Source: an uncultured Planctomycetia bacterium (GTDB lineage: Bacteria; Omnitrophota; Gorgyraeia; 2-02-FULL-51-18). From it: a DNA stretch of 64,000 nt. The stretch's first letter is position 1, and each line of letters begins with the position of its first letter. The notes under the pieces were generated by a model, which saw nothing but the letters and a program-made list of their open reading frames with translations, was not told the origin of the DNA and searched no databases. Position numbers and translations under genes: made by a program. Shown here in pieces: positions 18,068-56,606 of this stretch. Location of the stretch: the NCBI GenBank assembly GCA_964606485.1, contig CAZSGP010000001.1:481085-545084 (forward strand), in the 5' to 3' direction.

Positions 18068-18384
18068 AAGAGCTCTGGATGTATCTGGACCATCTATCGA
18101 AGGCGGGTCGGCAATTCATCACGGTCGATATATATAGGAGAGACCTGGGTCTTTTGGCCGACTTTTTATTTCGGGCGAAGAATAAAAACCTTGTCAGTGC
18201 CAGCACCGAAGACATCGAACCTTTTATGTATGAAACAAGTCAGCGTCTTTGCCAGTGGTGCTACTACAACCGGTATAACCGGATTTGGAACCTTTACAAC
18301 TTTTTTAAGACCGAAGGGCTCATTGGTGAAAATCCAATGGATGCAATCCCTCGGCCCAAAGCGCCAAGACGGGTTCGCCGATGA
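18064..18384 (+). pseudogene. Truncated tyrosine recombinase carrying only the N-terminal SAM-like core-binding domain (106 aa), middle member of the trio
   Basis: ATGA overlaps at both junctions (18064 and 18381). The sequence resembles the Xer N-terminal domain and no catalytic domain follows before the next full recombinase. Confidence 0.5.
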
Positions 18385-41801: not shown

Positions 41802-41806
41802 TCGCC

Positions 41807-42268
41807 ATGAAAAAATTATTAGTAATATTTATCATAACGTTGGTAGCAATCGGTGTCAGTTGGAAGATTTTCTCTCGTTTGAACAAGAATGCGGCGAAAA
41901 AGCCAGTGGAAACAGTTTTTATTGCGCCCAAAGAATATACGGAATCGTTTGAAAAGTCTACCGCATCGGCCAGGTTATTCTATGAAAAGTACCGGCGAGC
42001 GCTAGACCAGCTTAAACATGAAAACTACCAAGAAGCAATTCAGTCTTTTAATGAGTGTGTTCCTGAGGCGGGCATCGGCATTGAAAAAGGAATGGTTTAT
42101 AACAGGCTTGTGCAAATTTACAAAGCGCTTGATGACCCTCAAAACGAGTTGAAGTACACAGAACTTACGATTAAATTTTCAGCCAATACTGTTCTAAACG
42201 AGGAACTTAGTCGCCGTGCCGCTGAACTCCGCCAACTTCTCTCTGCAAAAGAAGCGCAGAAGAAATAA
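41807..42268 (+). CDS. Membrane-anchored helical (TPR-like?) protein (153 aa), positional counterpart of 22528..23280
   Basis: N-terminal TM segment LLVIFIITLVAIGVSW; helical Glu/Lys/Tyr-rich sequence. It starts 6 nt after the giant gene's stop codon. Confidence 0.35.
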   Translation: MKKLLVIFIITLVAIGVSWKIFSRLNKNAAKKPVETVFIAPKEYTESFEKSTASARLFYEKYRRALDQLKHENYQEAIQSFNECVPEAGIGIEKGMVYNRLVQIYKALDDPQNELKYTELTIKFSANTVLNEELSRRAAELRQLLSAKEAQKK

Positions 42269-42310
42269 GTCCCTTTTGACATCCCTGCTTCGCACTGCTA
42301 GTCTCTGTTT

Positions 42311-43555
42311 GTGAAAAAAATAGTTTTCTCAGTTTTATTAATAATTGTTTCCTTGGCGGCGGTTTACCTGCGCTTGCGTCCTCTGGACCAGCGAGATATT
42401 TCTCCCGACGAAGTCATGTATTCGACGTACGCAAATGTGATTGCCCACGAAGGCCTAAAAGGAACCGCCATTGCGGTTGATACCTACAGTAAAAATTCAA
42501 AATTGTGGACTTTGCCGCCTCCGACCCGAGTAGGGTATGTTTACCCGCTCGCGGCCCTCATGAAATACCTAGATAGGTCTGATTATGACGTGGGTGTCTA
42601 TTTGTCTAGAGTTTGCAGCATTCTGTCTCTGGGGGTGCTCGTTTTAATTGGATTCAGGTTCTTCGGTGCTCGCGCAGCTGTTTCCTCACTTTTATTCTTA
42701 GCGCTTTCAAGTTATGAGCTTGTCCTGGCCAGACGAACTTGGCAGGACGGTCTCATGACGTTATGGAGTGGAGTATTGATTTGGGTGGTCTGCGAATTGC
42801 TGAGAAAACCCAAAGCAATCGTTCTGTGGCTAGCTTACTTTTTGATCGTTTGCTACGGACCACTCATCAAAGAATCGGCGGTTCTCGTTTTAGGACTAAT
42901 GGGAATTTGTTGCGTTTCGGCACTAGTAATTCAAAAAAAATATGTCAGCGCAGCTATTTTTATTGGGGTCTCTACGATTAGTTTGGGGATAAGTTTTTTT
43001 GTATTAGCTTATTTAGCGGGAGGGATAACACCGCTTCTAAGCCTTTACGGTTTACTCAAAAGCGCCGTTGCTCAAAATCAGTATGCCGGCGAGTTTCAAA
43101 ACGGAGCCTATTTTAGTTTATTTTACGGCCTTTTTACACTTAGCCCAGTCGCGCTCAGCTTTTTTCTGGTTGGAATTTTTTTTATTATCTTTAGAGCTTT
43201 TTCCAAAGGCAATTCCAAATATTTTAATCAGATAGATGGCTTCATTCCAATAATCCTAGTCGTTTTCATTGTAAGTTTTTTTCTGATCGCATCTTTTCCA
43301 AGTTATTTTAAGAATTTGAGATACATTAGCCCAATTTACATCCCATTTTACTTGCTTGCAGGATTCGGAGCTGATTTTTTGGTTAAGCTGGTGACGGAAA
43401 AATTTAAAGGGGTTGGACGAACTCCAGCAACTCTAGTAATAGCAGCTATTTTGTGTGGTGGTCTAATTTACGAATACAAAACCTACGAATACCTTTTTAT
43501 TCAAAAGAAGGTGAAGGATCTCTCCCCAGATCTCATTAAAGAGTTCCTAGTTTAA
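42311..43555 (+). CDS. GT-C fold glycosyltransferase-like polytopic membrane protein (ArnT/PMT-like; GTG start)
   Basis: More than 10 predicted TM helices. The first extracytoplasmic loop carries SPDEVMYSTYA, a DExxY-type motif typical of GT-C (GT39/GT83) enzymes. Confidence 0.5.
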   Translation: MKKIVFSVLLIIVSLAAVYLRLRPLDQRDISPDEVMYSTYANVIAHEGLKGTAIAVDTYSKNSKLWTLPPPTRVGYVYPLAALMKYLDRSDYDVGVYLSRVCSILSLGVLVLIGFRFFGARAAVSSLLFLALSSYELVLARRTWQDGLMTLWSGVLIWVVCELLRKPKAIVLWLAYFLIVCYGPLIKESAVLVLGLMGICCVSALVIQKKYVSAAIFIGVSTISLGISFFVLAYLAGGITPLLSLYGLLKSAVAQNQYAGEFQNGAYFSLFYGLFTLSPVALSFFLVGIFFIIFRAFSKGNSKYFNQIDGFIPIILVVFIVSFFLIASFPSYFKNLRYISPIYIPFYLLAGFGADFLVKLVTEKFKGVGRTPATLVIAAILCGGLIYEYKTYEYLFIQKKVKDLSPDLIKEFLV

Positions 43556-43620: not shown

Positions 43621-43649
43621 TTGACAAACAGAAAGAGGTTTAATATACT
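43621..43649 (+). promoter_or_regulatory. Sigma-70-like promoter (TTGACA -17- TATACT)
   Basis: -35 TTGACA at 43621-43626, an exactly 17-nt spacer, and -10 TATACT at 43644-43649. It lies upstream of the HTH gene at 43700. Confidence 0.5.
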
Positions 43650-43699: not shown

Positions 43700-43912
43700 T
43701 TGGAAAAAAGTAAAGATAGCGTCTTTACCGTCCAAGAACTGGCGAAATACCTTCGCATGAAGCCGCTTACGATTTATAAGCACGCCTCCGAAGGAAATTT
43801 GCCGGGTTTTAAAATTGGGTCGCACTGGCGCTTCAAAAAACAAACGATTGATCGATGGATAAGCGATCAAGAAACGTGTAGCAGTAAGAAAAAAACTTTA
43901 ATAAATGTGTAG
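43700..43912 (+). CDS. Excisionase/AlpA-family HTH DNA-binding protein, paralog of 25006..25200
   Basis: FTVQELAKYLRMKPLTIYKHASEGNLPGFKIGSHWRFKKQTI. The gene has its own promoter and its own terminator. Confidence 0.6.
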   Translation: MEKSKDSVFTVQELAKYLRMKPLTIYKHASEGNLPGFKIGSHWRFKKQTIDRWISDQETCSSKKKTLINV

Positions 43913-43941
43913 CCCAAGCTTTAGAGCTTGGGTTTTTTGTT
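43913..43941 (+). terminator. Rho-independent terminator
   Basis: CCCAAGCT / AGCTTGGG perfect 8-bp stem with loop TTAG, followed by TTTTTTGTTT. Confidence 0.7.
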
Positions 43942-43959
43942 TACGAGATAGGCTGAGGT

Positions 43960-44706
43960 GTGGACGGACTTAAAGATAGGGTAGCGATTGTAACGGGTGG
44001 CAGTAGAGGCATAGGTCGCGCGATTGTCAAAGAGCTAGCGTCTAATGGGGTTAAGGTTGCCTTTAACTATTTAAAGAGTAAGGACCTTGCCGAAGGTCTT
44101 GTTGATGAAATCAAAAAGGCGGGCGGAGACGCAGTAACGCTTCAAGGGGATGTTAAAAGCTCCGAGTTTTGCAAGAAATTAGTCGACGAAACTAAGAGTA
44201 AATACGGGCGCATTGATTTTTTGGTTAATAACGCTGGGATCTTAAAGGATAAAACGTTGATGATGATGGCTGACTCAGATTGGAGCGATGTCATCGAGAC
44301 AAATTTAAATTCAATATTTTATTTAACGAGACAGGTGATCGTTAGTTTTTTAAAGCAAAAATCTGGAGTTGTTCTGAATATTTCATCGACGGCAGGAATT
44401 ATGGGAAGCGCTGGGCAATCCAACTACTCGGCGTCCAAAGCAGGGATAATCGGATTTAGTAAAGCCTTGGCGCGCGAGGTGGCGGCTTATGGAGTGCGTG
44501 TGAATGTATTGGCCCCAGGGTTTATTGATACGGAGATGGTTCAAACCATTCATGAAAATAAAAAAAAGGATCTTTTAAATCAGGTCCCCATGAAGCGAAC
44601 AGGCCGCGTCGAAGAAGTGTCTAAGGTTGCAGCATTTCTTCTATCCGATAATGCCAGCTACATAACCGGGCATGTTATTCCGGTGGATGGGGGGCTTGCG
44701 ATATGA
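43960..44706 (+). CDS. fabG: 3-oxoacyl-ACP reductase (SDR family, FabG-like; GTG start)
   Basis: VAIVTGGSRGIGRAI (Rossmann fold), NNAGI and the catalytic YSASKAG motif. Confidence 0.75.
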   Translation: MDGLKDRVAIVTGGSRGIGRAIVKELASNGVKVAFNYLKSKDLAEGLVDEIKKAGGDAVTLQGDVKSSEFCKKLVDETKSKYGRIDFLVNNAGILKDKTLMMMADSDWSDVIETNLNSIFYLTRQVIVSFLKQKSGVVLNISSTAGIMGSAGQSNYSASKAGIIGFSKALAREVAAYGVRVNVLAPGFIDTEMVQTIHENKKKDLLNQVPMKRTGRVEEVSKVAAFLLSDNASYITGHVIPVDGGLAI

Positions 44707-45962
44707 CCTCACACATAAAAGCGAATCAAGACAGAGTTGTTGTTACTGGAATTGGGGTGGTTTCATCCATTGGGATCGGCAAGGATGAGTTCTGGAAAGG
44801 CCTGAAAGAAGGGCGTTCTGGAATAAAGCCAGTGACTCTGTTTGATACATCAACTACGAATTCAAAACTTGCTGGTGAGATCTCAGATTTTAAACCCGAA
44901 CTAATTTTAGGAGAAAAGGGTCTTAGGAATCTGGACAGAACAACAAAGCTTGCTTTGTGTGCGGCCAAGCTGGCTCTTGATGACGGAAAATTTGAGGTGA
45001 GCGACTCGAACTCCGATAATGTGGGTGTAGTTCTCGGGTCAACCATGGGAAGTGTATGGAGTATTAGCGAGTTTGATAAGGAGGCTCTTCGTAACGGACC
45101 CAGGGCCGTAAATCCGGCGCTTTTTCCTAACACGGTCATAAACTCGCCTGCTAGTCAGATATCCATTAGATTTGGTATCAAAGGATTTAATACGACAATC
45201 TCCACTGGTTTTTCATCGGCTTTGGATGCGTTGGATTATGCAAAAAATTTTATTTTATTAGGTAGGGCTAAGGTTGTTTTGGTGGGTGGTGTTGAGGAGC
45301 TATGCGAACAAACGTTCAAAGGGTTTTATAAAACAGGTTTTTTATCCGGCTCAAGGGACGCGACAAGAGAGCTAATGGCTCCTTTTGATAGAAGAAGAAA
45401 TGGCGCGGTCTTAGGAGAAGGCTCTTCGATGTTTATTTTAGAAGAACTTGACCATGCTCGGGACAGGGGCGCAAAGATTTATGGAGAGCTAAAAGGAAGC
45501 AGCTCTTTCTTTAATGGGCGCAGTTATTATCGCTATGATTTAAAAGCGGAGGCCATGAAGCGGGCCATATCGGGGGCTATTGAGGAAGCAGGGATATTGG
45601 CAAATGAGATTGATTATGTTTCATCTTCGGCAAATTCTACTCTAGATGGTGATGTTTCTGAGGTGCGAGCACTCCAAGCTTCGATTAGTGGAAGAAAGAT
45701 CATTGCGAGTTCCATAAAGTCAATGATCGGAGAGAGCTACAGCGCGGGGGCGGCTTTCCAATTAGCATCATCATTTCTTACCCTTCAGGAAAATGTAATA
45801 CCACCGACAATTAATTATGAAGCTGAAGACCGTCGTTGCCAGATCGACTGCGTGCCAAACACCCCCAAAGAACAAGAGGTGAATAATATTTTAGTGTGTA
45901 CCCAGAGTCCAATGGGACAAAATTCTGCCGTTGTTTTGTCGGGAGTGCGAGTAGGGCATTAG
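44703..45962 (+). CDS. Ketosynthase-like protein lacking the catalytic triad (chain-length-factor/KS-beta-like)
   Basis: Thiolase-fold KS sequence in which the active-site Cys is replaced by Phe (TISTGFSSAL where KS has TACSSG). Both catalytic His residues are also replaced (SSSANSTL and KSMIGESYS). Confidence 0.6.
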   Translation: MTSHIKANQDRVVVTGIGVVSSIGIGKDEFWKGLKEGRSGIKPVTLFDTSTTNSKLAGEISDFKPELILGEKGLRNLDRTTKLALCAAKLALDDGKFEVSDSNSDNVGVVLGSTMGSVWSISEFDKEALRNGPRAVNPALFPNTVINSPASQISIRFGIKGFNTTISTGFSSALDALDYAKNFILLGRAKVVLVGGVEELCEQTFKGFYKTGFLSGSRDATRELMAPFDRRRNGAVLGEGSSMFILEELDHARDRGAKIYGELKGSSSFFNGRSYYRYDLKAEAMKRAISGAIEEAGILANEIDYVSSSANSTLDGDVSEVRALQASISGRKIIASSIKSMIGESYSAGAAFQLASSFLTLQENVIPPTINYEAEDRRCQIDCVPNTPKEQEVNNILVCTQSPMGQNSAVVLSGVRVGH

Positions 45963-46028
45963 TAGTGTTTGTTTGATGGTGAAGTAAATTCACTTTAAAT
46001 ATATTAGGGAAGAAAAAAGGGGGATGCT

Positions 46029-46289
46029 ATGAAAGCTGAGAATGGTGAGTTGGAGATTGAGATTAAAAAAATTATTTCAAAAATTATCGAAGTCGATGCC
46101 CACAAAATTACCCCAGAGGCTCATTTTATTGAGGACTTGGGATCTGATTCTATGATGGCATTGGAGATAATGGCGGCCCTAGAAAAGAAATTTGGAATTT
46201 CAATTCCAGAAGATCAGCTAACAAAAATGGCAAATTTAAACCAGGTAACTCAATTGGTGGATTCCCTTTTAGGGGCGGAAAAAAAATAA
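46029..46289 (+). CDS. Acyl carrier protein
   Basis: LGSDSMMALEI contains the phosphopantetheine-attachment Ser. The protein is 86 aa and acidic. Confidence 0.75.
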   Translation: MKAENGELEIEIKKIISKIIEVDAHKITPEAHFIEDLGSDSMMALEIMAALEKKFGISIPEDQLTKMANLNQVTQLVDSLLGAEKK

Positions 46290-46291
46290 AC

Positions 46292-47512
46292 ATGGAGCGT
46301 GTTGTTGTAACTGGGCTAGGAGCTGTTTCCGCCATAGGAATTGGCCGAGAAGATTTTTGGAACAATCTACTCCTTGGCAAAAGCGGTCTTAGCGAGATAA
46401 CTTCGTTTGAGACGCAAGGTTTGAGGAATCGAATTGCCGCAGAAATCAGAGGCTTTTCCTCGAGTGATTACGTGGTCTCGGACACTTTGCGGAATTGCGG
46501 GAAAGCTTCGCAGTATGCAACTGTTGCGGCAAACATGGCCTTACAAGACAGCGGAAAACGCCTTTACGATAACGGTGATAGCGTATTTGAGGCCGATGTT
46601 GTGGTGGGTACCACCATGGGCGAAATTCAAGCGCTTGAAAATGCGGATGCTGAGTGGGTGCAGCGCGGCGAAGATGGTGTTCTCGCTAGGCTCGCTTCTC
46701 AATATCCGAGTAACAATATTGCGATAAATGTTTCCAGAGAACTTAATATTACGGGTCATTCAATTGTTATTCCAACGGCTTGCGCCGCAGGCAACTATGC
46801 AATCGGCCATGGCTACGATTTGATAAAGTCCGGAAGATCTTCGAAGGTGCTTGCGGGAGGAGCTGAGTCTTTTTCTAGGATTGCTTATACAGGATTTAGC
46901 AGAATGCTGGCAATGGCTGAGACTAGATGCTCCCCCTTTGATAAAAATAGGAGAGGTATGATATTGGGCGAGGGAGCTGGTTTTTTGGTTTTAGAGTCTT
47001 TAACCAACGCGCAACAAAGAAATGCCCATATATATGCGGAAGTACTTGGTTATGGGTTAAGTTGCGATGCTACTCATATGACAATTCCTGATAGGGATGG
47101 CATTGTTAAGGCCATTACAAAAGCGGTTAGAGAGTCGGGCATCTCGTTGGAAGAAGTTGATTATATATGCGCACATGGGACCGGAACACCAGCAAATGAC
47201 GAAGCCGAATGTGCCGCTATTATGCGAATTTTTGGCGAGAGGGCTAAGAATATTCCCACGAGTTCAATAAAATCAATGATTGGCCATTCGATGGGTGCCG
47301 CTAGCGCTTTAGAGGCGATAGCATGCTGTATGGCCGTCCATGACGACAAAATCCCTCCGACAATTAATTTTACGGATCGTGATGATAAATGCAATATCGA
47401 TTGCGTACCCAACGAATACAGACAAAAAAGGGTGGGAGTTGCCCTCAATAATTCGTTTGCTTTTGGTGGTAATAATTCGTGCGTGGCTTTTGGTAAGATG
47501 AAAAACTTGTGA
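46292..47512 (+). CDS. Beta-ketoacyl-ACP synthase (active KS; FabF/KS-alpha-like)
   Basis: Active-site Cys in VIPTACAAGNYAIG; His residues in CAHGTGTPANDEAE and SIKSMIGHSMGAAS. Confidence 0.75.
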   Translation: MERVVVTGLGAVSAIGIGREDFWNNLLLGKSGLSEITSFETQGLRNRIAAEIRGFSSSDYVVSDTLRNCGKASQYATVAANMALQDSGKRLYDNGDSVFEADVVVGTTMGEIQALENADAEWVQRGEDGVLARLASQYPSNNIAINVSRELNITGHSIVIPTACAAGNYAIGHGYDLIKSGRSSKVLAGGAESFSRIAYTGFSRMLAMAETRCSPFDKNRRGMILGEGAGFLVLESLTNAQQRNAHIYAEVLGYGLSCDATHMTIPDRDGIVKAITKAVRESGISLEEVDYICAHGTGTPANDEAECAAIMRIFGERAKNIPTSSIKSMIGHSMGAASALEAIACCMAVHDDKIPPTINFTDRDDKCNIDCVPNEYRQKRVGVALNNSFAFGGNNSCVAFGKMKNL

Positions 47513-47519
47513 GTGTCGA

Positions 47520-49001
47520 ATGAATTCAAATTCATACGATGTTGCAATTATTGGAGCTGGTATTTCTGGGTTGGTAGCAGGAAATTACTTGGCTCAAGCT
47601 GGTCTAAAAGTATTTATTGCCGAACAGCACTATGCTGTTGGTGGATGCTGCTCTTTTTTTAAAAGAAAGGGTTTTACTTTTGAATGCGGAGCACATTCTC
47701 TCGGAAGTTGCCGTAAACCAGATGGGCGCATTTACCAGATTTTTAGAGAACTAGGCATCTACGATATTTTAGATATAAAACGCGCCGACTGTTCGGATAC
47801 GATTGTTACCAAAGCTCGAACGATTAATTTTTTAAATGGTGTCAATCAAATGGCCGAAACCCTGTCTCAGGAGTTTGAGAACTATAGGACCAATATTTAT
47901 GATTTTTTTAAGGAAATCGATGGGCTTAATTCACAATCATTTACGAAATATTACGTCCAATATGAAAAAATATCGTTTGATCAATTTCTTTCTAAGTTTT
48001 TTAAACAAAAAGATATAAAAGAAATTCTCAGCATTTTTTTGGGAAATTTAGGAGTAGCATCAGATGAAATTAGCGCAATCACCGCGTTAACGTTGTATAA
48101 AGAATATTTATTAGATGGCGGCTATTATGTTCCAAAAGGTGGTATGCAAAGACTGGGCGATGTTTTGAGAGAAAATTTTAAAAAAAATGGCGGGACGATT
48201 TCGCTTAGGGATAAAGTTGTTAAAATTCATGTTGAAAACGAGGCTGTGACAGGAATTGAAACTGAAAAAAAAGGTTTTTGCACCGCGAGCTATGTTATAT
48301 CAACCGCGGGCATTAAACAGACATTTTTTCAATTAATAGATCGCAAGTGGCTGCCTGACAACTTTTGCCTTAAAGCGAATAATTTAAAACCCTCCGTATC
48401 TGCGCTAATCCTTTATTTAGGGCTTAAAGGATCGACCATTAAGGAAAAGGCGTGGGGTAGAACGGTCTGGTATGTGCCTAATTTAAATGCCAATGATATA
48501 TATCGCAAAACGCTAAATGGTGATTGTGACGAAGAGATAGAAGTGGCTGTTATTGGGCTCCCCTCAAACTATGATGAAACCTTGGATCCGCCTGGGCATG
48601 AGAGTCTTAGGTGTATCGTAATGGCACCATTTAAAAATGAGGAGTTTTGGAGTAAAAATAAAACCAAATACAAAGAGATTATTATAAATCGATTGTCTGA
48701 AATTATTCCCGATTTAAGGGAGCGGATTGTTGTTAGCGAGCTGGCGAGCCCAAGTACTATGAGAAGATATACGCTAAACGATGACGGTGCAATATATGGG
48801 CTGGCATCAAGACGAGACCAAGTGGACTATGCTTGCATGCCTCAAAAAACTCCAGTAAAAAATTTATTCTTATCTAGTCATTGGGCAACAATTGGAGTAG
48901 GGCAGGGCGGAACTCCGATGGCAGCATTTGCTGGGCGGCAAGTCGCTAGATTGATTGAAGCAAAAAAAACAAATAAGAAAGATGTTGCATGGGCGGTTTA
49001 A
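47520..49001 (+). CDS. FAD-dependent oxidoreductase, phytoene desaturase (CrtI/CrtD) family
   Basis: N-terminal YDVAIIGAGISGLVAGNYLAQAGLKVFIAEQHYAVGG dinucleotide-binding motif; family-typical size of 493 aa. Confidence 0.65.
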   Translation: MNSNSYDVAIIGAGISGLVAGNYLAQAGLKVFIAEQHYAVGGCCSFFKRKGFTFECGAHSLGSCRKPDGRIYQIFRELGIYDILDIKRADCSDTIVTKARTINFLNGVNQMAETLSQEFENYRTNIYDFFKEIDGLNSQSFTKYYVQYEKISFDQFLSKFFKQKDIKEILSIFLGNLGVASDEISAITALTLYKEYLLDGGYYVPKGGMQRLGDVLRENFKKNGGTISLRDKVVKIHVENEAVTGIETEKKGFCTASYVISTAGIKQTFFQLIDRKWLPDNFCLKANNLKPSVSALILYLGLKGSTIKEKAWGRTVWYVPNLNANDIYRKTLNGDCDEEIEVAVIGLPSNYDETLDPPGHESLRCIVMAPFKNEEFWSKNKTKYKEIIINRLSEIIPDLRERIVVSELASPSTMRRYTLNDDGAIYGLASRRDQVDYACMPQKTPVKNLFLSSHWATIGVGQGGTPMAAFAGRQVARLIEAKKTNKKDVAWAV

Positions 49002-50446
49002 GCGAGGAGTATGATGCAGTAATTATTGGTGCCGGGATAGGAGGTTTAACCGCTGGTTGTTATTTGGCAAAGGCGGGTCTTAACGTTGCGATTATAGAGA
49101 GACACTCAAAGGTCGGGGGTTATTGCGGCTCATTTCCTAAAGAGGGCTTTATATTTGACGAAGCCGTTCATTACGTTAATCATATGAGCCAATCGGGTAT
49201 GTTGAGGAAAATTCTCGAAGATCTCGAAATTTTAAATTCCACCAAAATAGTTTCGATAGATCCATCAGATGTGTTGTATATGCCCGATTTCGAGATCAGA
49301 ATTTATCACGATACATTAAAAACAGTAGAAGAGTTGGCAAGAATTTTTCCCGACGAGAAAAAAGCCATAAGAGAATTTTTTGAGATTATCGTTAATTTTA
49401 ATTTTTCAAAACTCAGTGAAAAATATAGAGACCATTCTTTTCAGGACATCTTAGACGAACTCTTTGTTTCGTATAAGCTAAAAACTTCTTTGGCTGTTTT
49501 TGCAACGATTCTTGGATTGCCCCCAACAGATTTGTCAGGCCTTGCCGCCTTAGCCTATTACAAGGGCTCTATTTTGGATGGAGGACATCATCCTATTGGT
49601 GGGGCGCAAGTATTTTCAAATGCATTTAGTAGTAATTTTATAAAATTGGGAGGGACTTTTTTTCTAAATAAAAAAGTCGAAAAAATTCTAATCGAAAATA
49701 AATGTGCTAAGGGCATCGTGTTGGATAATGGGCAAATTATTCGATCCAAGTATGTTATTGCTAATTGTGACGCGTCACAACTTTATTCCAAGCTAATTGA
49801 TGAATCGTTTTTGGAAAGAGGATTTATTAATAAAATTGAGAACTTAACTCCAAGCACGTCAAATTTTATAGTTTATTTAGGTCTGAACAAATCGCTTAAA
49901 AATATGGTGCCGGTTTGCAGCAATTTATGGCGATTTCCTTATTATCGTTTTAACGAGGGTAGTGTTGATATTACTAAGGACAGCAGAGATGATGGCTTTG
50001 TTCACATTGCGTTATCCTCTCTGCATGACCGAAGCATGGCTCCGGAAGGGTGTGAATCGATCATGTTGTTTGCTGCCGCTTCTTTTAAGGATGAAGAATA
50101 TTGGGCCAAAAATAAAGAAAGATTTATGGACGTTATGATTAAGCGAGCTGAAAAAGTTATACCAGGGCTATCGAAGTGGATTAAAATAAAACTACCAGGA
50201 ACACCGCAAACTTTATACAGATACACTTTAAATCGGGCCGGCTCTTATAGGGGCTGGGAAATTACGCCAAACCAAACTAAAGCGACTTTAGTTAATCAAT
50301 ATACGCCACTTGAAAATCTTTATTTAGCCGGACATTGGATAACTACACCAGTTGGGAATGGTGGCGTCTCGATGGTGGCGAACTCAGGTAAGATGGCCGC
50401 TAAAGCAATTATTAGAAGTTATAACGATGTGATAACGTCAAAATGA
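48989..50446 (+). CDS. Second FAD-dependent oxidoreductase of the phytoene desaturase family
   Basis: YDAVIIGAGIGGLTAGCYLAKAGLNVAIIERHSKVGG. It is a paralog of the preceding gene, and the two overlap by 13 nt. Confidence 0.65.
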   Translation: MGGLSEEYDAVIIGAGIGGLTAGCYLAKAGLNVAIIERHSKVGGYCGSFPKEGFIFDEAVHYVNHMSQSGMLRKILEDLEILNSTKIVSIDPSDVLYMPDFEIRIYHDTLKTVEELARIFPDEKKAIREFFEIIVNFNFSKLSEKYRDHSFQDILDELFVSYKLKTSLAVFATILGLPPTDLSGLAALAYYKGSILDGGHHPIGGAQVFSNAFSSNFIKLGGTFFLNKKVEKILIENKCAKGIVLDNGQIIRSKYVIANCDASQLYSKLIDESFLERGFINKIENLTPSTSNFIVYLGLNKSLKNMVPVCSNLWRFPYYRFNEGSVDITKDSRDDGFVHIALSSLHDRSMAPEGCESIMLFAAASFKDEEYWAKNKERFMDVMIKRAEKVIPGLSKWIKIKLPGTPQTLYRYTLNRAGSYRGWEITPNQTKATLVNQYTPLENLYLAGHWITTPVGNGGVSMVANSGKMAAKAIIRSYNDVITSK

Positions 50447-52131
50447 TCAAGACACATAATTTGGTTCGCAATATCAGAAGCACCTTGATTCGATATAAGA
50501 ATCGTCAGGGGGATGAAATTATTGCATTCGTAGATTCGAGAGAGAAGGCTGATAGGGCTGGAAGCAGATGGGTCGTAATAGCCCCAGGTTACGCAGAAAC
50601 CAAAAAAGATTATCTTTCTTTGTCTTACTACCTGGTTGCAAATGGGTTTGTGGTCATTAGATTTGATTGGACCCATCATCTGGGTGAAAGCGAAGGTGAT
50701 ATGGCCGAGGCAAGTTTATTGAAAATGCGTAGCGATCTCGAAGCCACTATTAGTTATGTGAGTGATGTTTTTTCGCCTTCTAAAATTGGTCTTGTGACTA
50801 GCAGCTTGGCAACTAGAGTGGGGCTAAAGTTAGTAGCGGAAGACAAGCGAGTTAGTCTAATTATTGGGCTGGTTGGTGTTGTAGATCTTCAATCTACCTT
50901 GAGTTCGGTCTACTCCGAAGACCTTATAGCTAGATATCAAAGTGGTCATCGTTGGGGAAAGATAGATATTTTGGGACATGAACTAAGTGATAACTTTCTT
51001 GGTGTTGCAATTGAGGGGGGCTTCCACGACTTTAGAACGACCCAGGAAGACGTTCGATTGATTGATGTACCAATTGTCTTTTTTATGGCCGAAAAGGATG
51101 TATGGGTGCGAAGAAAACAAGCTGAACAATTAGTTCGAATATCTAAAAATCCTCAGAGCACGGTTAGCGTAATTCCAGCAGCAATGCATCATGTTGAAGA
51201 AAACCCTCGTTCGGCGCAAGCGTTGATTTATGGGGTTGTAAAAGCCTGCACAAAACATCTAAAAAAGGAAAATACAAAGCGCCCTGAAAAAGGACCAAAG
51301 AAACCATCTATTCGCGACATAGTCATTCAAAATCGATTGGAGTTTGCGCGGATTAAAGGACTCTCTCACATCACAAAAGAAGGGGAGAAGTCTTTCTGGA
51401 ATGATTATCTCTCTCTTTTCGGAATAATTTTTAGATCGGATGATTATAAGGGGCTGCTTAAAGATATCCAGGAATTTATGGGGCCTCTCAAACGCAATAT
51501 TAAGATTCTTGATGCTGGTTGTGGAAACGGACATTTTGGTATGTGGCTTCTATCAAAAATTGGCAGTTGTGACGACGGTGATAAAAACTTATTAGCTGGC
51601 GCGAAGTATGTCGGATTGGATTTTGTAAGTGAGGCGGTTGAGCAGGCGCGCCTGCGACATTCAGAAATGATTCGAATGATTAAAGGAAAGCACCGCTCTA
51701 AAGCAATGGATTGCTCGTACGTGATAGCGGATCTAGAAGGCCGGATTCCTTTGAGTGATTCTTATTTTGATAGGATATGCTGCAATCTAGTTGTATCGTA
51801 CCTCCGAGATCCTCGTGCAGCTATGCGGGAATTGTTCAGACTTACGAAAACTGGAGGCAAAATAGTTGTTAGTTCCCTGAAGCCGCATTGTGATTTCTCT
51901 ATTGTTTACCGAAATTTTATTGAGATTGCTGGTAACCAAGAAGAAATTATGGAAGCAAGAAAGCTACTTAGCCAAACCGGAAAGATCAGGCAAAAAGAGA
52001 GCGAGGGGCATTATCGCTTTTTCTCAGAAAAAGAATTGACTGATCTCTTAGAATGCTCGGGATTTTCATTGCACAGCGTTCGCAGGACATTAGGTGATCA
52101 AGCGAATATTGCTGTAGCGATCAAGAATTAG
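50443..52131 (+). CDS. Fusion protein: LuxD-like acyltransferase/thioesterase (alpha/beta-hydrolase) N-domain plus class I SAM-dependent methyltransferase C-domain
   Basis: IGLVTSSLATRVG resembles the LuxD nucleophile segment GLIAASLSARVA. Methyltransferase motif I ILDAGCGNGHFG at nt ~51504-51540. Confidence 0.45.
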   Translation: MIKTHNLVRNIRSTLIRYKNRQGDEIIAFVDSREKADRAGSRWVVIAPGYAETKKDYLSLSYYLVANGFVVIRFDWTHHLGESEGDMAEASLLKMRSDLEATISYVSDVFSPSKIGLVTSSLATRVGLKLVAEDKRVSLIIGLVGVVDLQSTLSSVYSEDLIARYQSGHRWGKIDILGHELSDNFLGVAIEGGFHDFRTTQEDVRLIDVPIVFFMAEKDVWVRRKQAEQLVRISKNPQSTVSVIPAAMHHVEENPRSAQALIYGVVKACTKHLKKENTKRPEKGPKKPSIRDIVIQNRLEFARIKGLSHITKEGEKSFWNDYLSLFGIIFRSDDYKGLLKDIQEFMGPLKRNIKILDAGCGNGHFGMWLLSKIGSCDDGDKNLLAGAKYVGLDFVSEAVEQARLRHSEMIRMIKGKHRSKAMDCSYVIADLEGRIPLSDSYFDRICCNLVVSYLRDPRAAMRELFRLTKTGGKIVVSSLKPHCDFSIVYRNFIEIAGNQEEIMEARKLLSQTGKIRQKESEGHYRFFSEKELTDLLECSGFSLHSVRRTLGDQANIAVAIKN

Positions 52132-52147
52132 AGGGTATGGAATAATT

Positions 52148-54295
52148 ATGGCACTGTGGTTATTTAGAATTATAACTTTGAGCGTGGCCGGAAGTTTTCT
52201 GGGCCTAGGGATATTTGTGTACTTGAAAAACCCCCAATCCAAACTTAGTCAAAGTTTTTTTGTTTTTAATACATTTATCTCACTCTGGAGTTTTGGTTTC
52301 TTTCTGACCCTATTTCCTCAGCTACCCAACGGTTTTATCCTGTGGGCGAGCAGGGCATCGCATCTTTGTGGAGGCTTGACAGCAGTACTTTTTCTAAGAT
52401 TTGTTGTCTTTTTTTTGGGATTAGATCCAAAGAAGCTACGCGATCCTATTCTGGGCATTCTTGTGATAGGGGCGACGATTAGCTGTGTCTCACCGTGGAT
52501 GATTCCAAGCCTAAGGGCAAAACTTTTTTTCCCAGCTTATCCCGATCCAGGGCCTCTCTACCCCGTTTTTTTGGCTAACTACTTCTATGGGTATATAAGG
52601 GGTTTCTATTTTTTATTTTATGCCTATAGGAATCAAGAAAGAGACTTGCAGCAACAAATGCAGGCCGTACTAACGCTCTCCGCAGTATTAATAGGCTGGC
52701 TGAGCATAGCTACTTTATTCTTGCCTATCTATAACATCGAATTCACTCCATTGCTTGGCTTCTTACCGATATTCGCAGTTGTATTTGTATACGCAATAAT
52801 TAAATACCGATTTCTTGATGTAGAAGTCATTGTTAAAAGGACACTGGTGTTTGCTGGGTTGGCGGCATCGGTTATGGTGGTGGTGTCGCTCATAACGTTT
52901 GTCTCACAGGATCTACTGGTGCGGTTTGTGACAGTCCCGCGATGGTTGGCTAATGTGGTTGCTGCGGGGGTCATTGCTACGACATATGGGCCGCTTCGAA
53001 ATTGGCTAGTCAATGTGACGGATAACTATCTCTTTCAGAAAAAGTATGATTACCGGGTTTTGCTCAAAACATTCACCAACGAGACGCTGACGGTGTTGGA
53101 TTTGCAGAAGCTCATGGACCAGACGGTGGCGGGGCTTGTGAGAATCATTAAGCTTGAGGCCGCGAGCATATTTTTATTCAATAAAGATAAAAAACTTTAT
53201 GAACTTTTAGCGGCACAGGGAGTTAAAGAAAAAATTCCAACCCTAGCGCAGGATAGCGTGATTATTTCTATGCTCAAGGCGTCGAGCCAGCACATTTTAA
53301 AAGACAAGAACGCCGACAAAATGGAACACGGAGAGCTGCACGTGGCGTTTAAACAGCTGAACGCTCAACTTTGTTTGCCGATTGAGCTGCATGATGAGCT
53401 GATCGGCATTTTGTGTCTTGGCATGAAAAAGTCAGGCGAAGAATACACGCAGGAAGACATCGACATCTTAACGACGCTGGCGCGCACGGAGGCGATTGCC
53501 ATTTCCAATGCGCGGCTTTTCGTCGAACTTTCACAGACGCAGGCTGAGGCGGCTCAGCGCGAAAAAATGGCGGTGATCGGGACGCTGGCGGCGGGAATCA
53601 ACCACGAAATTTGCAATCCGCTGGGGATTGTGCGCGGGCAGTGCGAAATGTTTCTTTTGAATCATCGCGACGGGTTTTATAGAGAGAAGAATGTGGACGA
53701 AGTGTTGCTAATTTCTTCTGAAATCATGAATAAGGTCATTAAAGAGACGGACCGCGCGACGGCGATCACCAAAAAGCTGTCGAGTTTTGCCAAGCCTTCC
53801 AAGCGGAATGAATTTGAAGAAGTGCAGGTCAACAAAGAGGTGGACGAGGTGCTGAGCCTCGTTGGGCACGATCTGTCGCTCAACAACATTAAAGTCGAAA
53901 AGCGTTTCCCTGAAAACTTCCCGGCTATTTTGGCCGACAAAAAGCAAGTTGAAGAAGTTTTGTTTAATATCATCCGCAACGCCGCTCAGGCGATGGACAA
54001 AAAAGACGGGAAAATTATTGTCTCGGGCTTGACGCGCGGGACAGACGCGGTGATTCAGATTGCGGACAACGGATCGGGCATACCCGAAGATAAAATTGCG
54101 CAGATTTTTAATCCATTTTATACCACCAAGGCGCCGGGCAAGGGAACGGGGCTTGGACTTTTTATTGTGAAACAGGTGGTGGAGCGAAACAAAGGAACCA
54201 TTATGGTGGAAAGTCAGGCGGGTCTGGGGACGACATTCACCATCACGTTTCCGGTGCATGTGAAAGAATTAGAAAGAAGCGTCATCCCCGCGTAG
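52148..54295 (+). CDS. Sensor histidine kinase with an N-terminal 7-TM region and a GAF-like middle domain
   Basis: Seven hydrophobic helices in the first 290 aa. H-box LAAGINHEICNPLG. HATPase motifs IADNGSGIPE and GTGLGLFIVKQ. Confidence 0.8.
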   Translation: MALWLFRIITLSVAGSFLGLGIFVYLKNPQSKLSQSFFVFNTFISLWSFGFFLTLFPQLPNGFILWASRASHLCGGLTAVLFLRFVVFFLGLDPKKLRDPILGILVIGATISCVSPWMIPSLRAKLFFPAYPDPGPLYPVFLANYFYGYIRGFYFLFYAYRNQERDLQQQMQAVLTLSAVLIGWLSIATLFLPIYNIEFTPLLGFLPIFAVVFVYAIIKYRFLDVEVIVKRTLVFAGLAASVMVVVSLITFVSQDLLVRFVTVPRWLANVVAAGVIATTYGPLRNWLVNVTDNYLFQKKYDYRVLLKTFTNETLTVLDLQKLMDQTVAGLVRIIKLEAASIFLFNKDKKLYELLAAQGVKEKIPTLAQDSVIISMLKASSQHILKDKNADKMEHGELHVAFKQLNAQLCLPIELHDELIGILCLGMKKSGEEYTQEDIDILTTLARTEAIAISNARLFVELSQTQAEAAQREKMAVIGTLAAGINHEICNPLGIVRGQCEMFLLNHRDGFYREKNVDEVLLISSEIMNKVIKETDRATAITKKLSSFAKPSKRNEFEEVQVNKEVDEVLSLVGHDLSLNNIKVEKRFPENFPAILADKKQVEEVLFNIIRNAAQAMDKKDGKIIVSGLTRGTDAVIQIADNGSGIPEDKIAQIFNPFYTTKAPGKGTGLGLFIVKQVVERNKGTIMVESQAGLGTTFTITFPVHVKELERSVIPA

Positions 54296-54311
54296 GCGGG
54301 GATCTAGTATA

Positions 54312-54533
54312 TTGAAGCAATACTACGTTTACATAATGGGCAGTGATAGGCCAACGCTCTATGTCGGAATTACGAGCGACCTCGCTAAGAGAGTTTATCA
54401 ACACAAGCAGGGGTTGGCGGATGGGTTTACTAAAAAATACAATATTAAAAAGCTTCTATATTACGAAATTACTGAAAGCGCGGAGAGTGCTATAGTTAGA
54501 GAAAAGCAGATTAAGCATTGGAAGCGCGACTAG
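54312..54533 (+). CDS. Small GIY-YIG nuclease-superfamily protein (73 aa)
   Basis: YVYIMGSDRPTLYVGITSDLAKRVYQHKQG is the GIY-x10-YVG-x6-R-x3-H core. Confidence 0.55.
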   Translation: MKQYYVYIMGSDRPTLYVGITSDLAKRVYQHKQGLADGFTKKYNIKKLLYYEITESAESAIVREKQIKHWKRD

Positions 54534-54650
54534 AAGCTTGAGTTGATTAGGGAGAGAAATGCCAATTTCGAAGATTTGTATGAGAGTATCGTTTGATTCC
54601 CGCATTCGCGGGAATGACAGGCTGGGATGCAGGGATAACAGGTTTCACAG

Positions 54651-55016
54651 ATGCTAAAACTTTTGACGATTGATGACGAAACAGAATTTACGGCGCTGAT
54701 CTCCAATTACTTTGGGGCGCGGGGGTTCCAGGTGTTTACGGCGAATCGCGGCGAAGAGGGACTTGCGATTTCGGAAAAGGAAAGTCCGGACATTCACCTC
54801 ATCGATCTAAAAATGCCGGGACTTCACGGCGATGAAGTCTTAAGAGAAATTATTAAAAAAAATAGCACGGCGAAGGTGATTATGATCACCGCGTCTGAAG
54901 GCGAAGGAAAGACGCGGGCGAAGTTGTTCGAGCTTGGGGCATCGGCTTGTTTTGACAAGCCGATTAGCTCCTTGCGGGATTTGGAAAGTAAAATTAAGGA
55001 AATACTGCAATCGTGA
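54651..55016 (+). CDS. Single-domain response regulator (receiver)
   Basis: LLTIDDE, IHLIDLKMPGL (phospho-acceptor Asp) and KLFELGA. Confidence 0.7.
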   Translation: MLKLLTIDDETEFTALISNYFGARGFQVFTANRGEEGLAISEKESPDIHLIDLKMPGLHGDEVLREIIKKNSTAKVIMITASEGEGKTRAKLFELGASACFDKPISSLRDLESKIKEILQS

Positions 55017-55390
55017 AACCAAACGGAAAAATTTTAGTCTGCGACAATGAAATAGACATTTGCAATTTTGTGAAATCTTTTTTTGAGGTGCGCGGATTTC
55101 ATGTGGTGACCGCGCTAAACGGCGACGAGGCGATGAAAATTTTAGAAAAAGAGCGCCCGAATCTCGTGATCTTAGACGTCATGATGCGCACGGACAATGA
55201 AGGTCTTGAATACTTGCCGAAGGTGAAGGCGGCACTTCCTTCCGCGCATGTGATTATGATCACCGGCGTAGACGACGAAGCTTCGATTAAAAAAGCCAAA
55301 GAGCTGGGTGCAGATGATTACATCACGAAGCCGCTGGTGTTGGAGTATCTGGAAAGCACGGTGATGGGGAAGGTGAAAAAACTTGTATAG
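55013..55390 (+). CDS. Second single-domain response regulator (receiver)
   Basis: ILVCDNE, LVILDVMM, ITGVDDE and KELGADDYITKP. An ATGA overlap couples it to the previous gene. Confidence 0.7.
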   Translation: MKPNGKILVCDNEIDICNFVKSFFEVRGFHVVTALNGDEAMKILEKERPNLVILDVMMRTDNEGLEYLPKVKAALPSAHVIMITGVDDEASIKKAKELGADDYITKPLVLEYLESTVMGKVKKLV

Positions 55391-56606
55391 CCGTCTCGAC
55401 TACCAAGAAGCGCTACTCAATGCCTCAAAGGGCATGATCCGCGTCAAGGACCCCGTGACACTTTTAAAAATGATCACGCGGTTCATTGACCGACAGATCG
55501 GCGTGACCCATGTCGCGGTGGTGCTGCTCGAGCGCGCCAAAAATGCTTATGTTTTAATTGATAGTAAAGGCGATGGTGGGGCAAAGCTTCCGGTAGGCTA
55601 CGTCAGACTCCCTCAGGACAACGCGCTGATTGATTTCTTTTTAGCACTCGACAACGGCGTGTTTGCCCGCAAAGAAGCGCTGGTTTACAGCGAAATCGAT
55701 CACCTGCAAAATTTTGAAATCTTGGTGAATAAAAAAGAATCAAAAGCCATTCACTATGATGACTTGAAGCGGCAAATGCGTCTTTTGCGCGCCGCAGTCT
55801 GCGTGCCGAGTTTCTACAAGCGAGAACTCGTGGGAATTTTAATTTTAGGGGAAAAGCTTTCCGGGGAGCCGTATCAGGAAGAGGAGATCGGTCTTTTTGT
55901 GACATTGGCCAACGACGTGGCCATGGCGGTGAAGAATGCGGAACTGATTAAAGATTTGAAGACGGCCTACGACAAAGAGCATGCGCTGTTTATTCAAACT
56001 TCCATCGCACTCGCGACGGCTATCGATGCTCGGGACAAGTACACGCACGGTCATTCCGAGCGCGTGTCTCACTACAGCCTTGTGATCGTCAAAGAAATGA
56101 TCGACGCGGGCCTAATGGAGTACAACCGAGAATTTATGGAAACGGTTCAGCTTTCAGCGCTATTGCACGACGTCGGAAAAATTGGCATCAAAGACGAAAT
56201 TTTAAATAAACCAGCCCAGCTCACCGTCGATGAGTTTGAAGTGATGAAAACGCATGTGAAGATTGGCGCAACAATTGTGAAGCCGGTGAAGGGGCTTTCG
56301 CATTTGGAGGATGGCATTTTGTACCATCACGAGCGCTTCGATGGAAATGGGTATCCGTTCGGACTTAAGGCGTATGACATTCCGCTGATTGGCCGCATTG
56401 TAAACGTGGCCGACTCCTACGACACCATGACGACGGCACGTTCCTACAAGACCGCGATGACGCCGGACGAGGCTTTTCGAGAGATCTTGAATTGCAAGGA
56501 AACACAGTTCGACCCGCAGCTCGTGGACATTTTCTTCCGCGCGTATAAAAAAGGCAAGATCACTAAGCGCGAATACACGAGTTTTGATTTTTCGAGAGTT
56601 CATTAA
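55383..56606 (+). CDS. GAF plus HD-GYP domain protein (putative c-di-GMP phosphodiesterase)
   Basis: HD-GYP motifs HGHSERVSHY, LLHDVGKIGI and HHERFDGNGYP at nt ~56040-56360. Confidence 0.75.
   Translation: MYSRLDYQEALLNASKGMIRVKDPVTLLKMITRFIDRQIGVTHVAVVLLERAKNAYVLIDSKGDGGAKLPVGYVRLPQDNALIDFFLALDNGVFARKEALVYSEIDHLQNFEILVNKKESKAIHYDDLKRQMRLLRAAVCVPSFYKRELVGILILGEKLSGEPYQEEEIGLFVTLANDVAMAVKNAELIKDLKTAYDKEHALFIQTSIALATAIDARDKYTHGHSERVSHYSLVIVKEMIDAGLMEYNREFMETVQLSALLHDVGKIGIKDEILNKPAQLTVDEFEVMKTHVKIGATIVKPVKGLSHLEDGILYHHERFDGNGYPFGLKAYDIPLIGRIVNVADSYDTMTTARSYKTAMTPDEAFREILNCKETQFDPQLVDIFFRAYKKGKITKREYTSFDFSRVH

Follow-up and report, generated by a model that had tools for sequence, protein, structure and literature searches.

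A putative lipid gene cluster with an anammox-type ketosynthase pair and an adjoining, probable c-di-GMP signalling module in an Omnitrophota genome

The 64 kb stretch of an Omnitrophota contig analysed here (CAZSGP010000001.1; the whole stretch is called the window) carries on its + strand a seven-gene core for type II fatty acid synthase (FAS)-like chemistry (43960–52131), whose two ketosynthases (KS1 and KS2) are, by sequence comparison, specific homologues of the amxFabFmut/amxFabF2 heterodimer of anammox bacteria (PDB 9S5H/9S5I). In order, the core encodes a FabG-type 3-oxoacyl-acyl carrier protein (ACP) reductase, i.e. a ketoreductase (KR; 43960–44706); KS1, a catalytically dead, chain-length factor (CLF)-like ketosynthase homologue of the amxFabFmut type (44703–45962); an ACP with a DSM Ser motif (46029–46289; PF00550); KS2, an active ketosynthase of the amxFabF2 type (46292–47512); two flavin adenine dinucleotide (FAD)-dependent oxidoreductases, PDH1, of the CrtI/CrtD fold (47520–49001; PF01593, PF13450), and PDH2, a second member of its family (48989–50446); and a LuxD-like acyl-ACP thioesterase/acyltransferase fused to a class I S-adenosylmethionine (SAM)-dependent methyltransferase (50443–52131; PF02273 and Methyltransf_23/31/11). 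A sequence-only reading of the stretch had named these seven open reading frames (ORFs) and described three of them as overlapping the preceding gene. All seven are present, and the overlaps are as described: 44703 lies in the fabG stop (ATGA), 48989 overlaps the end of PDH1 by 13 nt and 50443 lies in the PDH2 stop (ATGA), with gaps of 2–66 nt between the remaining genes of the core. The gene identities were upheld by Pfam and NCBIfam, which returned FabG, two ketoacyl synthases, ACP, two Amino_oxidase/NAD_binding_8 flavoproteins and an Acyl_transf_2 (LuxD family)–methyltransferase fusion.

The core is thus delimited as proposed, but the cluster does not end at 52131. A tightly spaced run of genes extends from 43700 to 56606, from a small HTH_17 gene (43700–43912) through a kinase, two receivers and an HD-GYP protein, and the largest gap between fabG and the HD-GYP gene is 117 nt. 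The additional downstream genes on the + strand encode a sensor histidine kinase with HisKA_7TM membrane domain, GAF, HisKA and HATPase (52148–54295, by Pfam), which starts 16 nt after the fusion gene, two response regulators, RR1, consisting of a REC domain only (54651–55016; PF00072), and the single-domain RR2 (55013–55390; PF00072), which overlaps RR1 by 4 nt, and a GAF-HD-GYP protein (55383–56606; PF13487, PF01966), which overlaps RR2 by 8 nt. We propose that this signalling module, overlooked by the sequence-only reading, is co-transcribed with the lipid genes and functionally tied to them. An identical 25 kb contig (L001) was recovered in an assembly from an independent read set, so that the arrangement is not an assembly artefact.

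The ketosynthase pair and its partner enzymes

Aligned to solved ketosynthases, KS1 has no catalytic Cys (Phe170 takes its place), and its first and second catalytic His are replaced by Ser and Glu344, respectively, in agreement with the earlier prediction that all three catalytic residues are lost. The gating Phe has also become Pro, and the aligned positions read F/S/K/E/P. KS2 keeps Cys, His, Lys, His and Phe at the same positions (C/H/K/H/F) and is of the active type, as had been predicted. With one triad-bearing and one triad-less ketosynthase in the same cluster, its assignment to a KS/CLF-type, FAS-like class stands. The best PDB match of KS1 is 9s5h_C (374 bits, E 5.5e-111), followed by Bacillus subtilis FabF (4ls5, 244 bits); that of KS2 is 9s5h_B (440 bits, E 7.3e-131), followed by the ishigamide ketosynthase Iga11 (6KXD, 330 bits) and FabF (293 bits). 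KS2 also scores above the KAS II subfamily cut-off (393.6 vs 387 bits).

With one genome scanned per species, a relative of KS1 turned up in at least 402 genomes/loci, and the best 80 of the 402 loci were retrieved. In a neighbour-joining (NJ) tree of ketosynthases (numpy distance/NJ bootstrap, 200 bootstraps), the inactive subunits, comprising KS1 of the window, its Omnitrophota and Nitrospirota relatives and the anammox proteins, form one clade (100% bootstrap), and the active partners including KS2 form a second (96% bootstrap), which shows that the pair is an old, co-inherited two-subunit unit that includes KS1/KS2 of the window. The residue pattern follows the tree: Cys/His/His is lacking in 79 of 79 KS1-like proteins, with Phe/Tyr/Met, Asn/Ser/Cys/Thr/Gly/Ala and Glu/Asp at the three positions, and the triad is kept in 55 of 55 KS2-like proteins. 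The anammox proteins are active only as a heterodimer, which decarboxylates malonyl-ACP to start synthesis, initiates without FabH and, in crosslinking, prefers C6–C8 probes over C16; Phe135 and Val139 of amxFabFmut shape its tunnel (bioRxiv 10.64898/2026.05.19.726425). Both tunnel-lining residues fall within an FPNTV motif with which the FPNTV motif of KS1 aligns (residue numbering mapped by eye), and the motif is invariant in 12 KS1 relatives. By homology, KS1 and KS2 would likewise act as a heterodimer.

Anammox Cluster I (kuste3603–3608), a putative ladderane cluster, comprises amxACP, amxFabZ, amxFabF2, amxFabFmut, PDH and a B12 radical-SAM enzyme (bioRxiv 10.64898/2026.05.19.726425). In the anammox cluster with 100% identity to 9s5h_C (L085), the gene order is ACP-FabZ-FabF2-FabFmut-PDH-B12 radical-SAM; this order is kept in all anammox-type loci of sufficient length, and the B12 radical-SAM gene adjoins PDH in all 17 of them that continue beyond the PDH gene. 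The window shares with Cluster I the active and dead FabF pair in the same two clades, a dead subunit without Cys and with the second His changed to Glu, the FPNTV tunnel motif, and an adjoining ACP and PDH homologue (31–34% identical). In contrast to Cluster I, it has neither a B12 radical-SAM enzyme nor an in-cluster FabZ, and it contains FabG, two PDH paralogues, the LuxD-methyltransferase and the 7TM-GAF kinase/HD-GYP module. Its gene order is different, its ACP is not specifically amxACP-like, and its host is not an anammox bacterium.

FabG of the window exceeds the equivalog cut-off of TIGR01830 (303.8 vs 297.75 bits) and carries the TGGSRGIG and S...YSASK motifs. The ACP stays below the cut-off of TIGR00517 (64.1 vs 70.45 bits); its identity to amxACP is 38% (44–46 bits), and generic ACPs score higher (62 bits). 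A homologue of FabZ or FabA was found nowhere in the 64 kb window, either by tblastn or by Pfam searches of the larger ORFs. The earlier statement that there are no dehydratases is therefore true of the window, but it does not describe the family, in which FabZ lies within the cluster in 57 of the 80 relatives. Given this distribution, the suggestion that flavoenzyme desaturation replaces dehydration does not hold as a family trait.

The two flavoenzymes had been placed in the CrtI family, which is correct for the fold but not for family membership. PDH1 and PDH2 are paralogues with 35% identity and possess the FAD-binding GAGIxGL (GxGxxG) motif. The top fold match of an AlphaFold2 (AF2) model of PDH2 (pLDDT 93.9) is the gamma-carotene desaturase 4REP (TM 0.83), followed by CrtI (4DGK). 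Their scores against TIGR02734 (CrtI family) are 125.6 and 134.8 bits at a cut-off of 238.1, so that they are CrtI-like by fold and lie outside the curated carotenoid family. Over their full length they match the anammox Cluster I PDH (Brocadia), PDH1 with 31% identity and 206 bits and PDH2 with 34% identity and 256 bits, compared with only 64 bits for the best carotenoid desaturase in the PDB by sequence. No phytoene or prenyl synthase was detected among the Pfam-scanned ORFs of at least 120 aa, which make up most of the window minus two giant ORFs. A carotenoid reading was rejected on the sub-threshold CrtI scores and the lack of crtB/crtE-type genes among the scanned ORFs. The anammox PDH homologues did not substitute for crtI in vivo. 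Precedent for a phytoene-dehydrogenase-like enzyme with fatty acyl chains as substrate is provided by UfaD of furan fatty acid synthesis, which works on phospholipid-bound chains and is active only aerobically, alongside UfaM, a SAM-dependent fatty acyl methylase that modifies the chain itself (PMC7380195). The window resembles UfaM/UfaD in combining a phytoene-dehydrogenase-like FAD enzyme with a SAM-dependent methylase; it differs in that its methyltransferase has no Pfam match to the cyclopropane-fatty-acid-synthase family, and in that the ufa operon contains no ketosynthase or ACP.

The last gene of the core had been described as a LuxD-like thioesterase fused to a SAM methyltransferase, and both sequence and fold support this. 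The LuxD-like domain (approximately aa 11–260) scores 90.9 bits against PF02273 (gathering cut-off 20.3), and its Ser121/Asp219/His249 align with the triad Ser114/Asp211/His241 of LuxD (1THT) and are invariant in 34 homologues. An AF2 model of the fusion (pLDDT 86.8) has LuxD 1THT as its top fold match (TMt 0.83). By analogy to LuxD, a myristoyl-ACP thioesterase/acyltransferase, the domain is likely to off-load acyl chains from ACP. It differs from LuxD in its low identity (approximately 21%), its score against the LuxD equivalog NF052253 (95.9 bits vs a cut-off of 420), the fused methyltransferase and the absence of lux genes (luxCE/luxAB). The methyltransferase domain (approximately aa 336–562) has the DxGCGxG motif, and its matches to BioC, UbiE and LahSB are all weak; the fold search with the fusion model returned hydrolase matches only and is therefore uninformative on this domain. 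At least 324 proteins belong to the fusion family, and some of them carry additional N-terminal PilZ and/or SRPBCC lipid-binding domains (PilZ-SRPBCC-LuxD-methyltransferase, SRPBCC-LuxD-methyltransferase and PilZ-LuxD-methyltransferase). A stand-alone methyltransferase encoded after PDH in the nearest relative of the window (L083) was considered as a counterpart and rejected, since it has no homology to the fused methyltransferase domain beyond the generic fold.

Gene content of the relatives and the signalling module

The best 80 of the 402 loci belong mostly to Omnitrophota, among them Ca. Velamenicoccus archaeovorus with its closed genome, and to Nitrospirota/Thermodesulfovibrionales, and some of the records are labelled Planctomycetia. 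Synteny around the KS1 family is conserved in all 80, and together with the identical contig of the independent assembly this shows that the arrangement is not due to chance. Clusters labelled 'ladderane' by antiSMASH have been reported earlier, and found expressed, in metagenome-assembled genomes (MAGs) of Omnitrophota, without functional analysis, and similar clusters were noted in deltaproteobacteria in 2009.

Thirty-one loci are complete, i.e. KS2 is present and at least 9 kb follow downstream. Within this set, ACP (30 loci), FabG (28), FabZ (25) and PDH (22) are common, a FAR-like NAD_binding_4 reductase occurs in 11 loci and an AAR-like acyl-ACP reductase (108 bits to 6JZQ) in six, and the LuxD-methyltransferase fusion occurs in one. 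At the corresponding place, other loci encode an alpha/beta hydrolase, an ICMT-family methyltransferase, class I methyltransferases or a GMC oxidoreductase. That relatives vary so much in their release and head-group enzymes at this position speaks for a product that is released and modified at its head group. Within the family the window is a minority variant, with no FabZ, two PDH paralogues, and hydrolytic release plus a methyltransferase as opposed to reductive release in most relatives.

A nitroreductase-family flavoprotein is encoded in 10 of the 31 complete loci (e.g. L082 13453–14061 and L084 14586–15176), and PDH is present in all 10, a co-occurrence that suggests that the nitroreductase-family protein is a redox partner of PDH. 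The window carries its second PDH where such relatives carry the nitroreductase. A third divergent ketosynthase of approximately 437 aa with intact Cys and His residues follows PDH or KS2 in six loci (L016, L018, L020, L021, L029 and L032). Eleven loci (L040, L043–L045, L050, L053, L059, L062, L063, L067 and L068) contain the dead KS1 with FabG and FabZ only and no KS2 or ACP within 10 kb; this KS1-FabG-FabZ group is embedded among the housekeeping genes nusB, ribD, ribE, ligA, xerD and cca.

In a single clade, that of Ca. Velamenicoccus archaeovorus, genes for a dihydrolipoamide dehydrogenase-like protein (Lpd) and a LipB octanoyltransferase-like protein directly precede the KS1 cluster (L015, L023, L025, L026, L028, L030, L036, L039, L041, L046, L047 and L051), in most cases along with a gene for a lipoyl-domain protein. 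A link to octanoyl-ACP and lipoate is conceivable for this clade because of the C6–C8 preference of the anammox enzyme. For the cluster of the window such a role was rejected, as the lipoate genes (LipB, lipoyl-domain protein and Lpd), which adjoin the cluster in 13 loci, are confined to that clade and absent from the window.

The kinase is a recurrent neighbour of the ketosynthase pair. A same-strand kinase with a homologous 7TM-GAF sensor is found in 22 of the 31 complete KS1/KS2 loci vs none of nine loci without KS2, and the Nitrospirota loci have a related kinase family. In all six contexts examined, even where no ketosynthase is nearby, a 7TM-GAF sensor (a kinase or a GGDEF protein) directly borders the LuxD-methyltransferase fusion. 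One such context is L117 (7630–14740), where a PilZ-SRPBCC-LuxD-methyltransferase gene lies between genes for a 7TM-GAF-GGDEF protein and a 7TM-GAF histidine kinase in the mur/fts (dcw) cluster, with no ketosynthase in the vicinity. The receiver after the kinase and the GAF-HD-GYP protein are also conserved in relatives. The HD-GYP motifs are intact in the window (HDVGK and HHERFDGNGYP), and the protein is a probable phosphodiesterase of cyclic di-GMP (c-di-GMP). Neither receiver has an output domain. These output-less receivers, the HD-GYP protein and the PilZ fusions together point to c-di-GMP as the currency between the sensor and the lipid enzymes.

Proposed pathway and alternative explanations

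We propose that the cluster encodes a KS/CLF-type, FAS-like pathway of the amxFabF class for a tailored, released and probably methyl-esterified lipid, and that this pathway is coupled to c-di-GMP signalling; we assign this reading a probability of about 45%. Based on the gene content and the anammox precedent, the following hypothetical sequence of steps is suggested, in which (i) the KS2/KS1 heterodimer would decarboxylate malonyl-ACP for priming and extend chains on the ACP of the cluster, with the dead KS1 shaping the acyl tunnel; (ii) FabG would reduce the beta-keto group; (iii) dehydration and enoyl reduction would be supplied by genes at other sites of the genome, or the final round would halt at 3-hydroxyacyl-ACP; (iv) PDH1 and PDH2 would alter chain saturation by adding, moving or removing double bonds; (v) the LuxD-like domain would take the finished chain off the ACP; and (vi) the fused methyltransferase would methylate the released chain, most likely at the carboxyl group to yield a methyl ester. 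The signalling module could act in either direction, with c-di-GMP setting the lipid output or the kinase sensing the lipid or the state of the membrane. A methyl-esterified, non-standard lipid, as predicted in the sequence-only reading, is still a reasonable product.

Several points weigh against this proposal. Data on product, activity and expression of members of the amxFabF class are limited to anammox bacteria, and even for the anammox pair only acetoacetyl-ACP formation and crosslinking have been demonstrated (bioRxiv 10.64898/2026.05.19.726425). A specific kinship of the window ACP to amxACP is not supported, as generic ACPs outscore amxACP. PDH is absent from 9 of the 31 complete loci and is thus not an obligatory step, and the LuxD-methyltransferase fusion is rare at KS1 loci (the window and 2 of 80 others), so that the proposed release step is not the family norm. 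The methyltransferase domain has no diagnostic match, which makes O-methylation a guess. Finally, KEGG orthology (KO) tables for three Omnitrophota genomes show single-copy fabF, fabG and fabZ and no known enoyl reductase, a pattern that fits a primary FAS equally well or better.

The main rival is accordingly that the cluster is the primary, possibly the only, type II FAS core of the organism, with KS2/KS1 in place of FabH and FabF and with FabG and ACP as the housekeeping copies. A flavoenzyme of the cluster (PDH, or the nitroreductase of the relatives) might then serve as enoyl-ACP reductase, and the tailoring and release genes together with the kinase module would tune membrane lipid composition. 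We consider this explanation as a whole to be a serious possibility, yet on the unlikely side. It is favoured by the occurrence of KS1 in at least 402 species-level genomes, by the position of KS1-FabG-FabZ among the core genes nusB, ribD/E, ligA and xerD in some lineages, by the scores of FabG above the equivalog and of KS2 above the KAS II subfamily cut-off, and by the ability of the anammox heterodimer to start synthesis without FabH. The KO tables (genomes 58, 231 and 221; supplement of PMC10066038), whose genomes may or may not carry the cluster, contain calls for fabD, fabG, fabZ and acpP, a single fabF call in each of genomes 58 and 231, and fabH in one of the three; fabI, fabK, fabL and fabV have no call in any, and the enoyl reductase of Omnitrophota may be an unrecognised one. 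These tables make a primary FAS role a live rival, and the earlier conclusion that the product is a special lipid rather than a housekeeping fatty acid is not settled.

However, the KO evidence comprises three genomes, and the fabF called there may be a ketosynthase of the cluster or another one. The FAR- and AAR-like reductases, LuxD thioesterase and methyltransferases within the operon indicate a released product and not acyl-ACP destined for phospholipids. PDH and FabZ do not co-vary as would an enoyl reductase/dehydratase pair, since the window has two PDH and no FabZ and eight complete loci have FabZ and no PDH. Moreover, anammox bacteria have a canonical FAS beside the homologous cluster, and the tunnel residues are similar to those of the anammox enzyme, which prefers short chains. 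If the operon were nonetheless the only FAS, it would represent a notable case of a FabH-independent, CLF-containing primary FAS with an unrecognised enoyl reductase.

A more specific version of the signalling role is that the LuxD-methyltransferase fusion and the 7TM-GAF kinase act together as the synthase and the receptor of a hydrophobic signal, a fatty-acid methyl ester, an idea built on analogy that we regard as doubtful. One signal candidate would be a 3-hydroxy or unsaturated acyl methyl ester, produced through the flavoenzymes, FabG and the ketosynthase pair; its perception would be turned into a change in c-di-GMP by the receivers and the HD-GYP protein, and the PilZ-fused synthases of relatives would close a feedback loop. 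In the diffusible signal factor (DSF) system of Xanthomonas, the synthase RpfF (a crotonase) is accompanied by the kinase RpfC and by RpfG, an HD-GYP regulator with its own receiver domain. The window has a comparable association of a fatty-acid-derived molecule with a sensor kinase and an HD-GYP phosphodiesterase, with no homology of the biosynthetic genes implied. In the quorum-sensing system phcBSRQ of Ralstonia, methyl 3-hydroxymyristate is the product of the methyltransferase PhcB and is perceived by the kinase PhcS, which works with the regulators PhcR and PhcQ (PMC8578825). The window has the same succession of methyltransferase, membrane histidine kinase and two response regulators, which is an analogy of gene order only and implies no homology; a KR-terminated, dehydratase-free pathway could lead to a 3-hydroxy acid, which, once methylated, would belong to the same compound class. 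Unlike in phc, the output here is an HD-GYP (c-di-GMP) protein and not a LysR regulator, and the window has its own ketosynthase pair, ACP and flavoenzymes. If true, a methyl-ester signal would constitute a lipid circuit for cell-cell communication or host sensing in ultra-small, host-associated Omnitrophota, analogous to phc and not related to it by descent.

We consider it improbable that the fusion acts in a BioC/BioH-like manner, in which the methyltransferase domain would esterify malonyl-ACP at its free carboxyl group to yield a disguised primer, the ketosynthase pair and FabG would elongate this primer, and the hydrolase domain would finally cleave the methyl ester to give an alpha,omega-dicarboxylate. 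The fusion does join the enzyme classes of BioC and BioH, there is a weak match to BioC (TIGR02072, E 1.6e-9), and JGI names given to homologues include 'pimeloyl-ACP methyl ester carboxylesterase'. However, the BioC match amounts to 38 bits at a cut-off of 184.95 and is no better than those to UbiE or generic methyltransferases, the hydrolase domain is LuxD-like and not BioH-like by both sequence and fold, and there are no biotin genes nearby.

Even less probable, in our view, is a highly reducing type II polyketide synthase (PKS) or a system akin to aryl-polyene synthesis, with the CrtI-like enzymes rather than dehydratases creating a conjugated polyene. Aryl-polyene and ishigamide-type systems are likewise built around a ketosynthase with a dead partner, an ACP and a KR. 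The arrangement of an active ketosynthase, an inactive partner that determines chain length, a free-standing ACP and a KR is shared with the KS/CLF heterodimers of type II PKS (actinorhodin ActKS/CLF; ishigamide Iga11/Iga12), Iga11 of the highly reducing ishigamide PKS is the second-best solved match of KS2, and the window has no dehydratase. Aryl-polyene clusters are characterised by an aryl-starter adenylation enzyme, a dehydratase pair, a second ACP, and genes for lipid export and transfer. Pfam returned none of these features for the ORFs between 41807 and 56606, which yielded no adenylating or aryl-starter enzyme, paired dehydratases, second ACP, export or acyltransferase genes. The ketosynthases group with the FAS-like anammox pair and not with PKS KS/CLF, the relatives possess an ordinary FabZ in 57 of 80 cases, and the window cluster contains neither cyclases/aromatases nor polyene-type dehydratases. 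The aryl-polyene-like class named in the sequence-only reading consequently has to give way to amxFabF2/amxFabFmut as the closest relatives; that reading had brought up ladderane clusters merely as a set to compare with. An aromatic type II PKS was likewise rejected, given that Phe170 occupies the Cys/Gln position, where aromatic CLFs have Gln, and that cyclase domains are lacking in the window cluster.

Ladderane production, as thought for the anammox cluster, is hardly credible: the ketosynthase pair and PDH are homologous to those of Cluster I and antiSMASH applies the label 'ladderane' to such Omnitrophota MAG clusters, but no orthologue of the B12 radical-SAM enzyme was found in the window or in the 80 related loci (four weak radical-SAM matches far upstream, with approximately 23% identity, are not orthologues), so that ladderanes are not expected, and in addition the gene order is different, amxFabZ is absent and ladderanes are known from the literature only in anammox bacteria.

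Returning to the proposed tailored-lipid pathway, the comparison also bears on the anammox cluster itself. The candidate ladderane cluster has been described as unique to ladderane producers (bioRxiv 10.64898/2026.05.19.726425). The combination of an active and a dead FabF, an ACP, a PDH homologue and usually FabZ is, however, common to hundreds of Omnitrophota and Nitrospirota genomes and not restricted to ladderane producers. The only anammox-specific parts are the B12 radical-SAM enzyme and the fixed gene order, which narrows the ladderane-specific chemistry to the radical-SAM enzyme. Ladderane biosynthesis has long been an open problem, and non-anammox homologues, such as that of the enriched Ca. 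Velamenicoccus archaeovorus, could be used to find the product of the shared core. The kind of cluster is known, namely a FAS-like cluster with an amxFabF-type KS/CLF pair to which antiSMASH gives the name 'ladderane', whereas the release module and the conserved coupling to a 7TM-GAF kinase and c-di-GMP genes are previously unreported. The 7TM-GAF kinases, HD-GYP/GGDEF proteins and PilZ-fused enzymes point to c-di-GMP-controlled lipid production or lipid sensing in Omnitrophota, a phylum of largely uncultivated, partly predatory nanobacteria.

Flanking genes and minor features

The 70 aa HTH_17 (excisionase/MerR-like) DNA-binding protein encoded at the 5' end of the run (43700–43912, + strand; PF12728, E 1.8e-14) is a candidate local regulator. 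An HTH_17 gene of 59–69 aa also lies directly 5' of the cluster in L082, L083 and L084. Upstream of the small gene, a promoter-like site, TTGACA-17-TATACT (43621–43649, + strand), is the region's best consensus match (11/12) and is to be read as a consensus match only. Between the HTH gene and fabG lies a GC-rich hairpin with a T-run (43911–43934, + strand), with a 10-bp stem containing 5 GC pairs and then TTTTGTTT, which is terminator- or attenuator-like as a pattern match only. Between the kinase and the receivers, a 73 aa GIY-YIG ORF (54312–54533, + strand; PF01541) is of doubtful membership in the system and may be a small mobile or selfish insertion. In L083, a GIY-YIG ORF also adjoins the module, there after the HD-GYP gene.

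The lipid and signalling operon is sandwiched between two giant genes. On the upstream side (28731–43555), a giant ORF of 4356 aa is followed 5 nt later by a 153 aa ORF without family match and then by a 414 aa membrane protein with a weak PMT_2 match, and none of the three is conserved with the lipid cluster. The 153 aa and 414 aa ORFs (41807–43555), which follow the giant ORF and occur elsewhere only in the identical contig L001, were considered as members of the system and placed outside it. In L083, a giant ORF (>3352 aa; RHS, Laminin_G_3 and Peptidase_C39) likewise lies just 5' of the cluster. On the downstream side, a second giant ORF (56858–64000) begins 251 nt after the HD-GYP gene and runs for 2381 codons without a stop past the end of the window; in L001 it is called as 2772 aa.

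At the far upstream end of the window (22–7619), genes for an MmeI target-recognition-domain protein, a 1299 aa helicase, an MZB (DUF1998-type) protein and a PLD-domain protein stand in a row and, judged by these parts, may form a DISARM-type defence island. A PIF1-like helicase gene followed by two tyrosine recombinase genes (15262–19277) suggests an integrated mobile element between these defence genes and the rest of the window.

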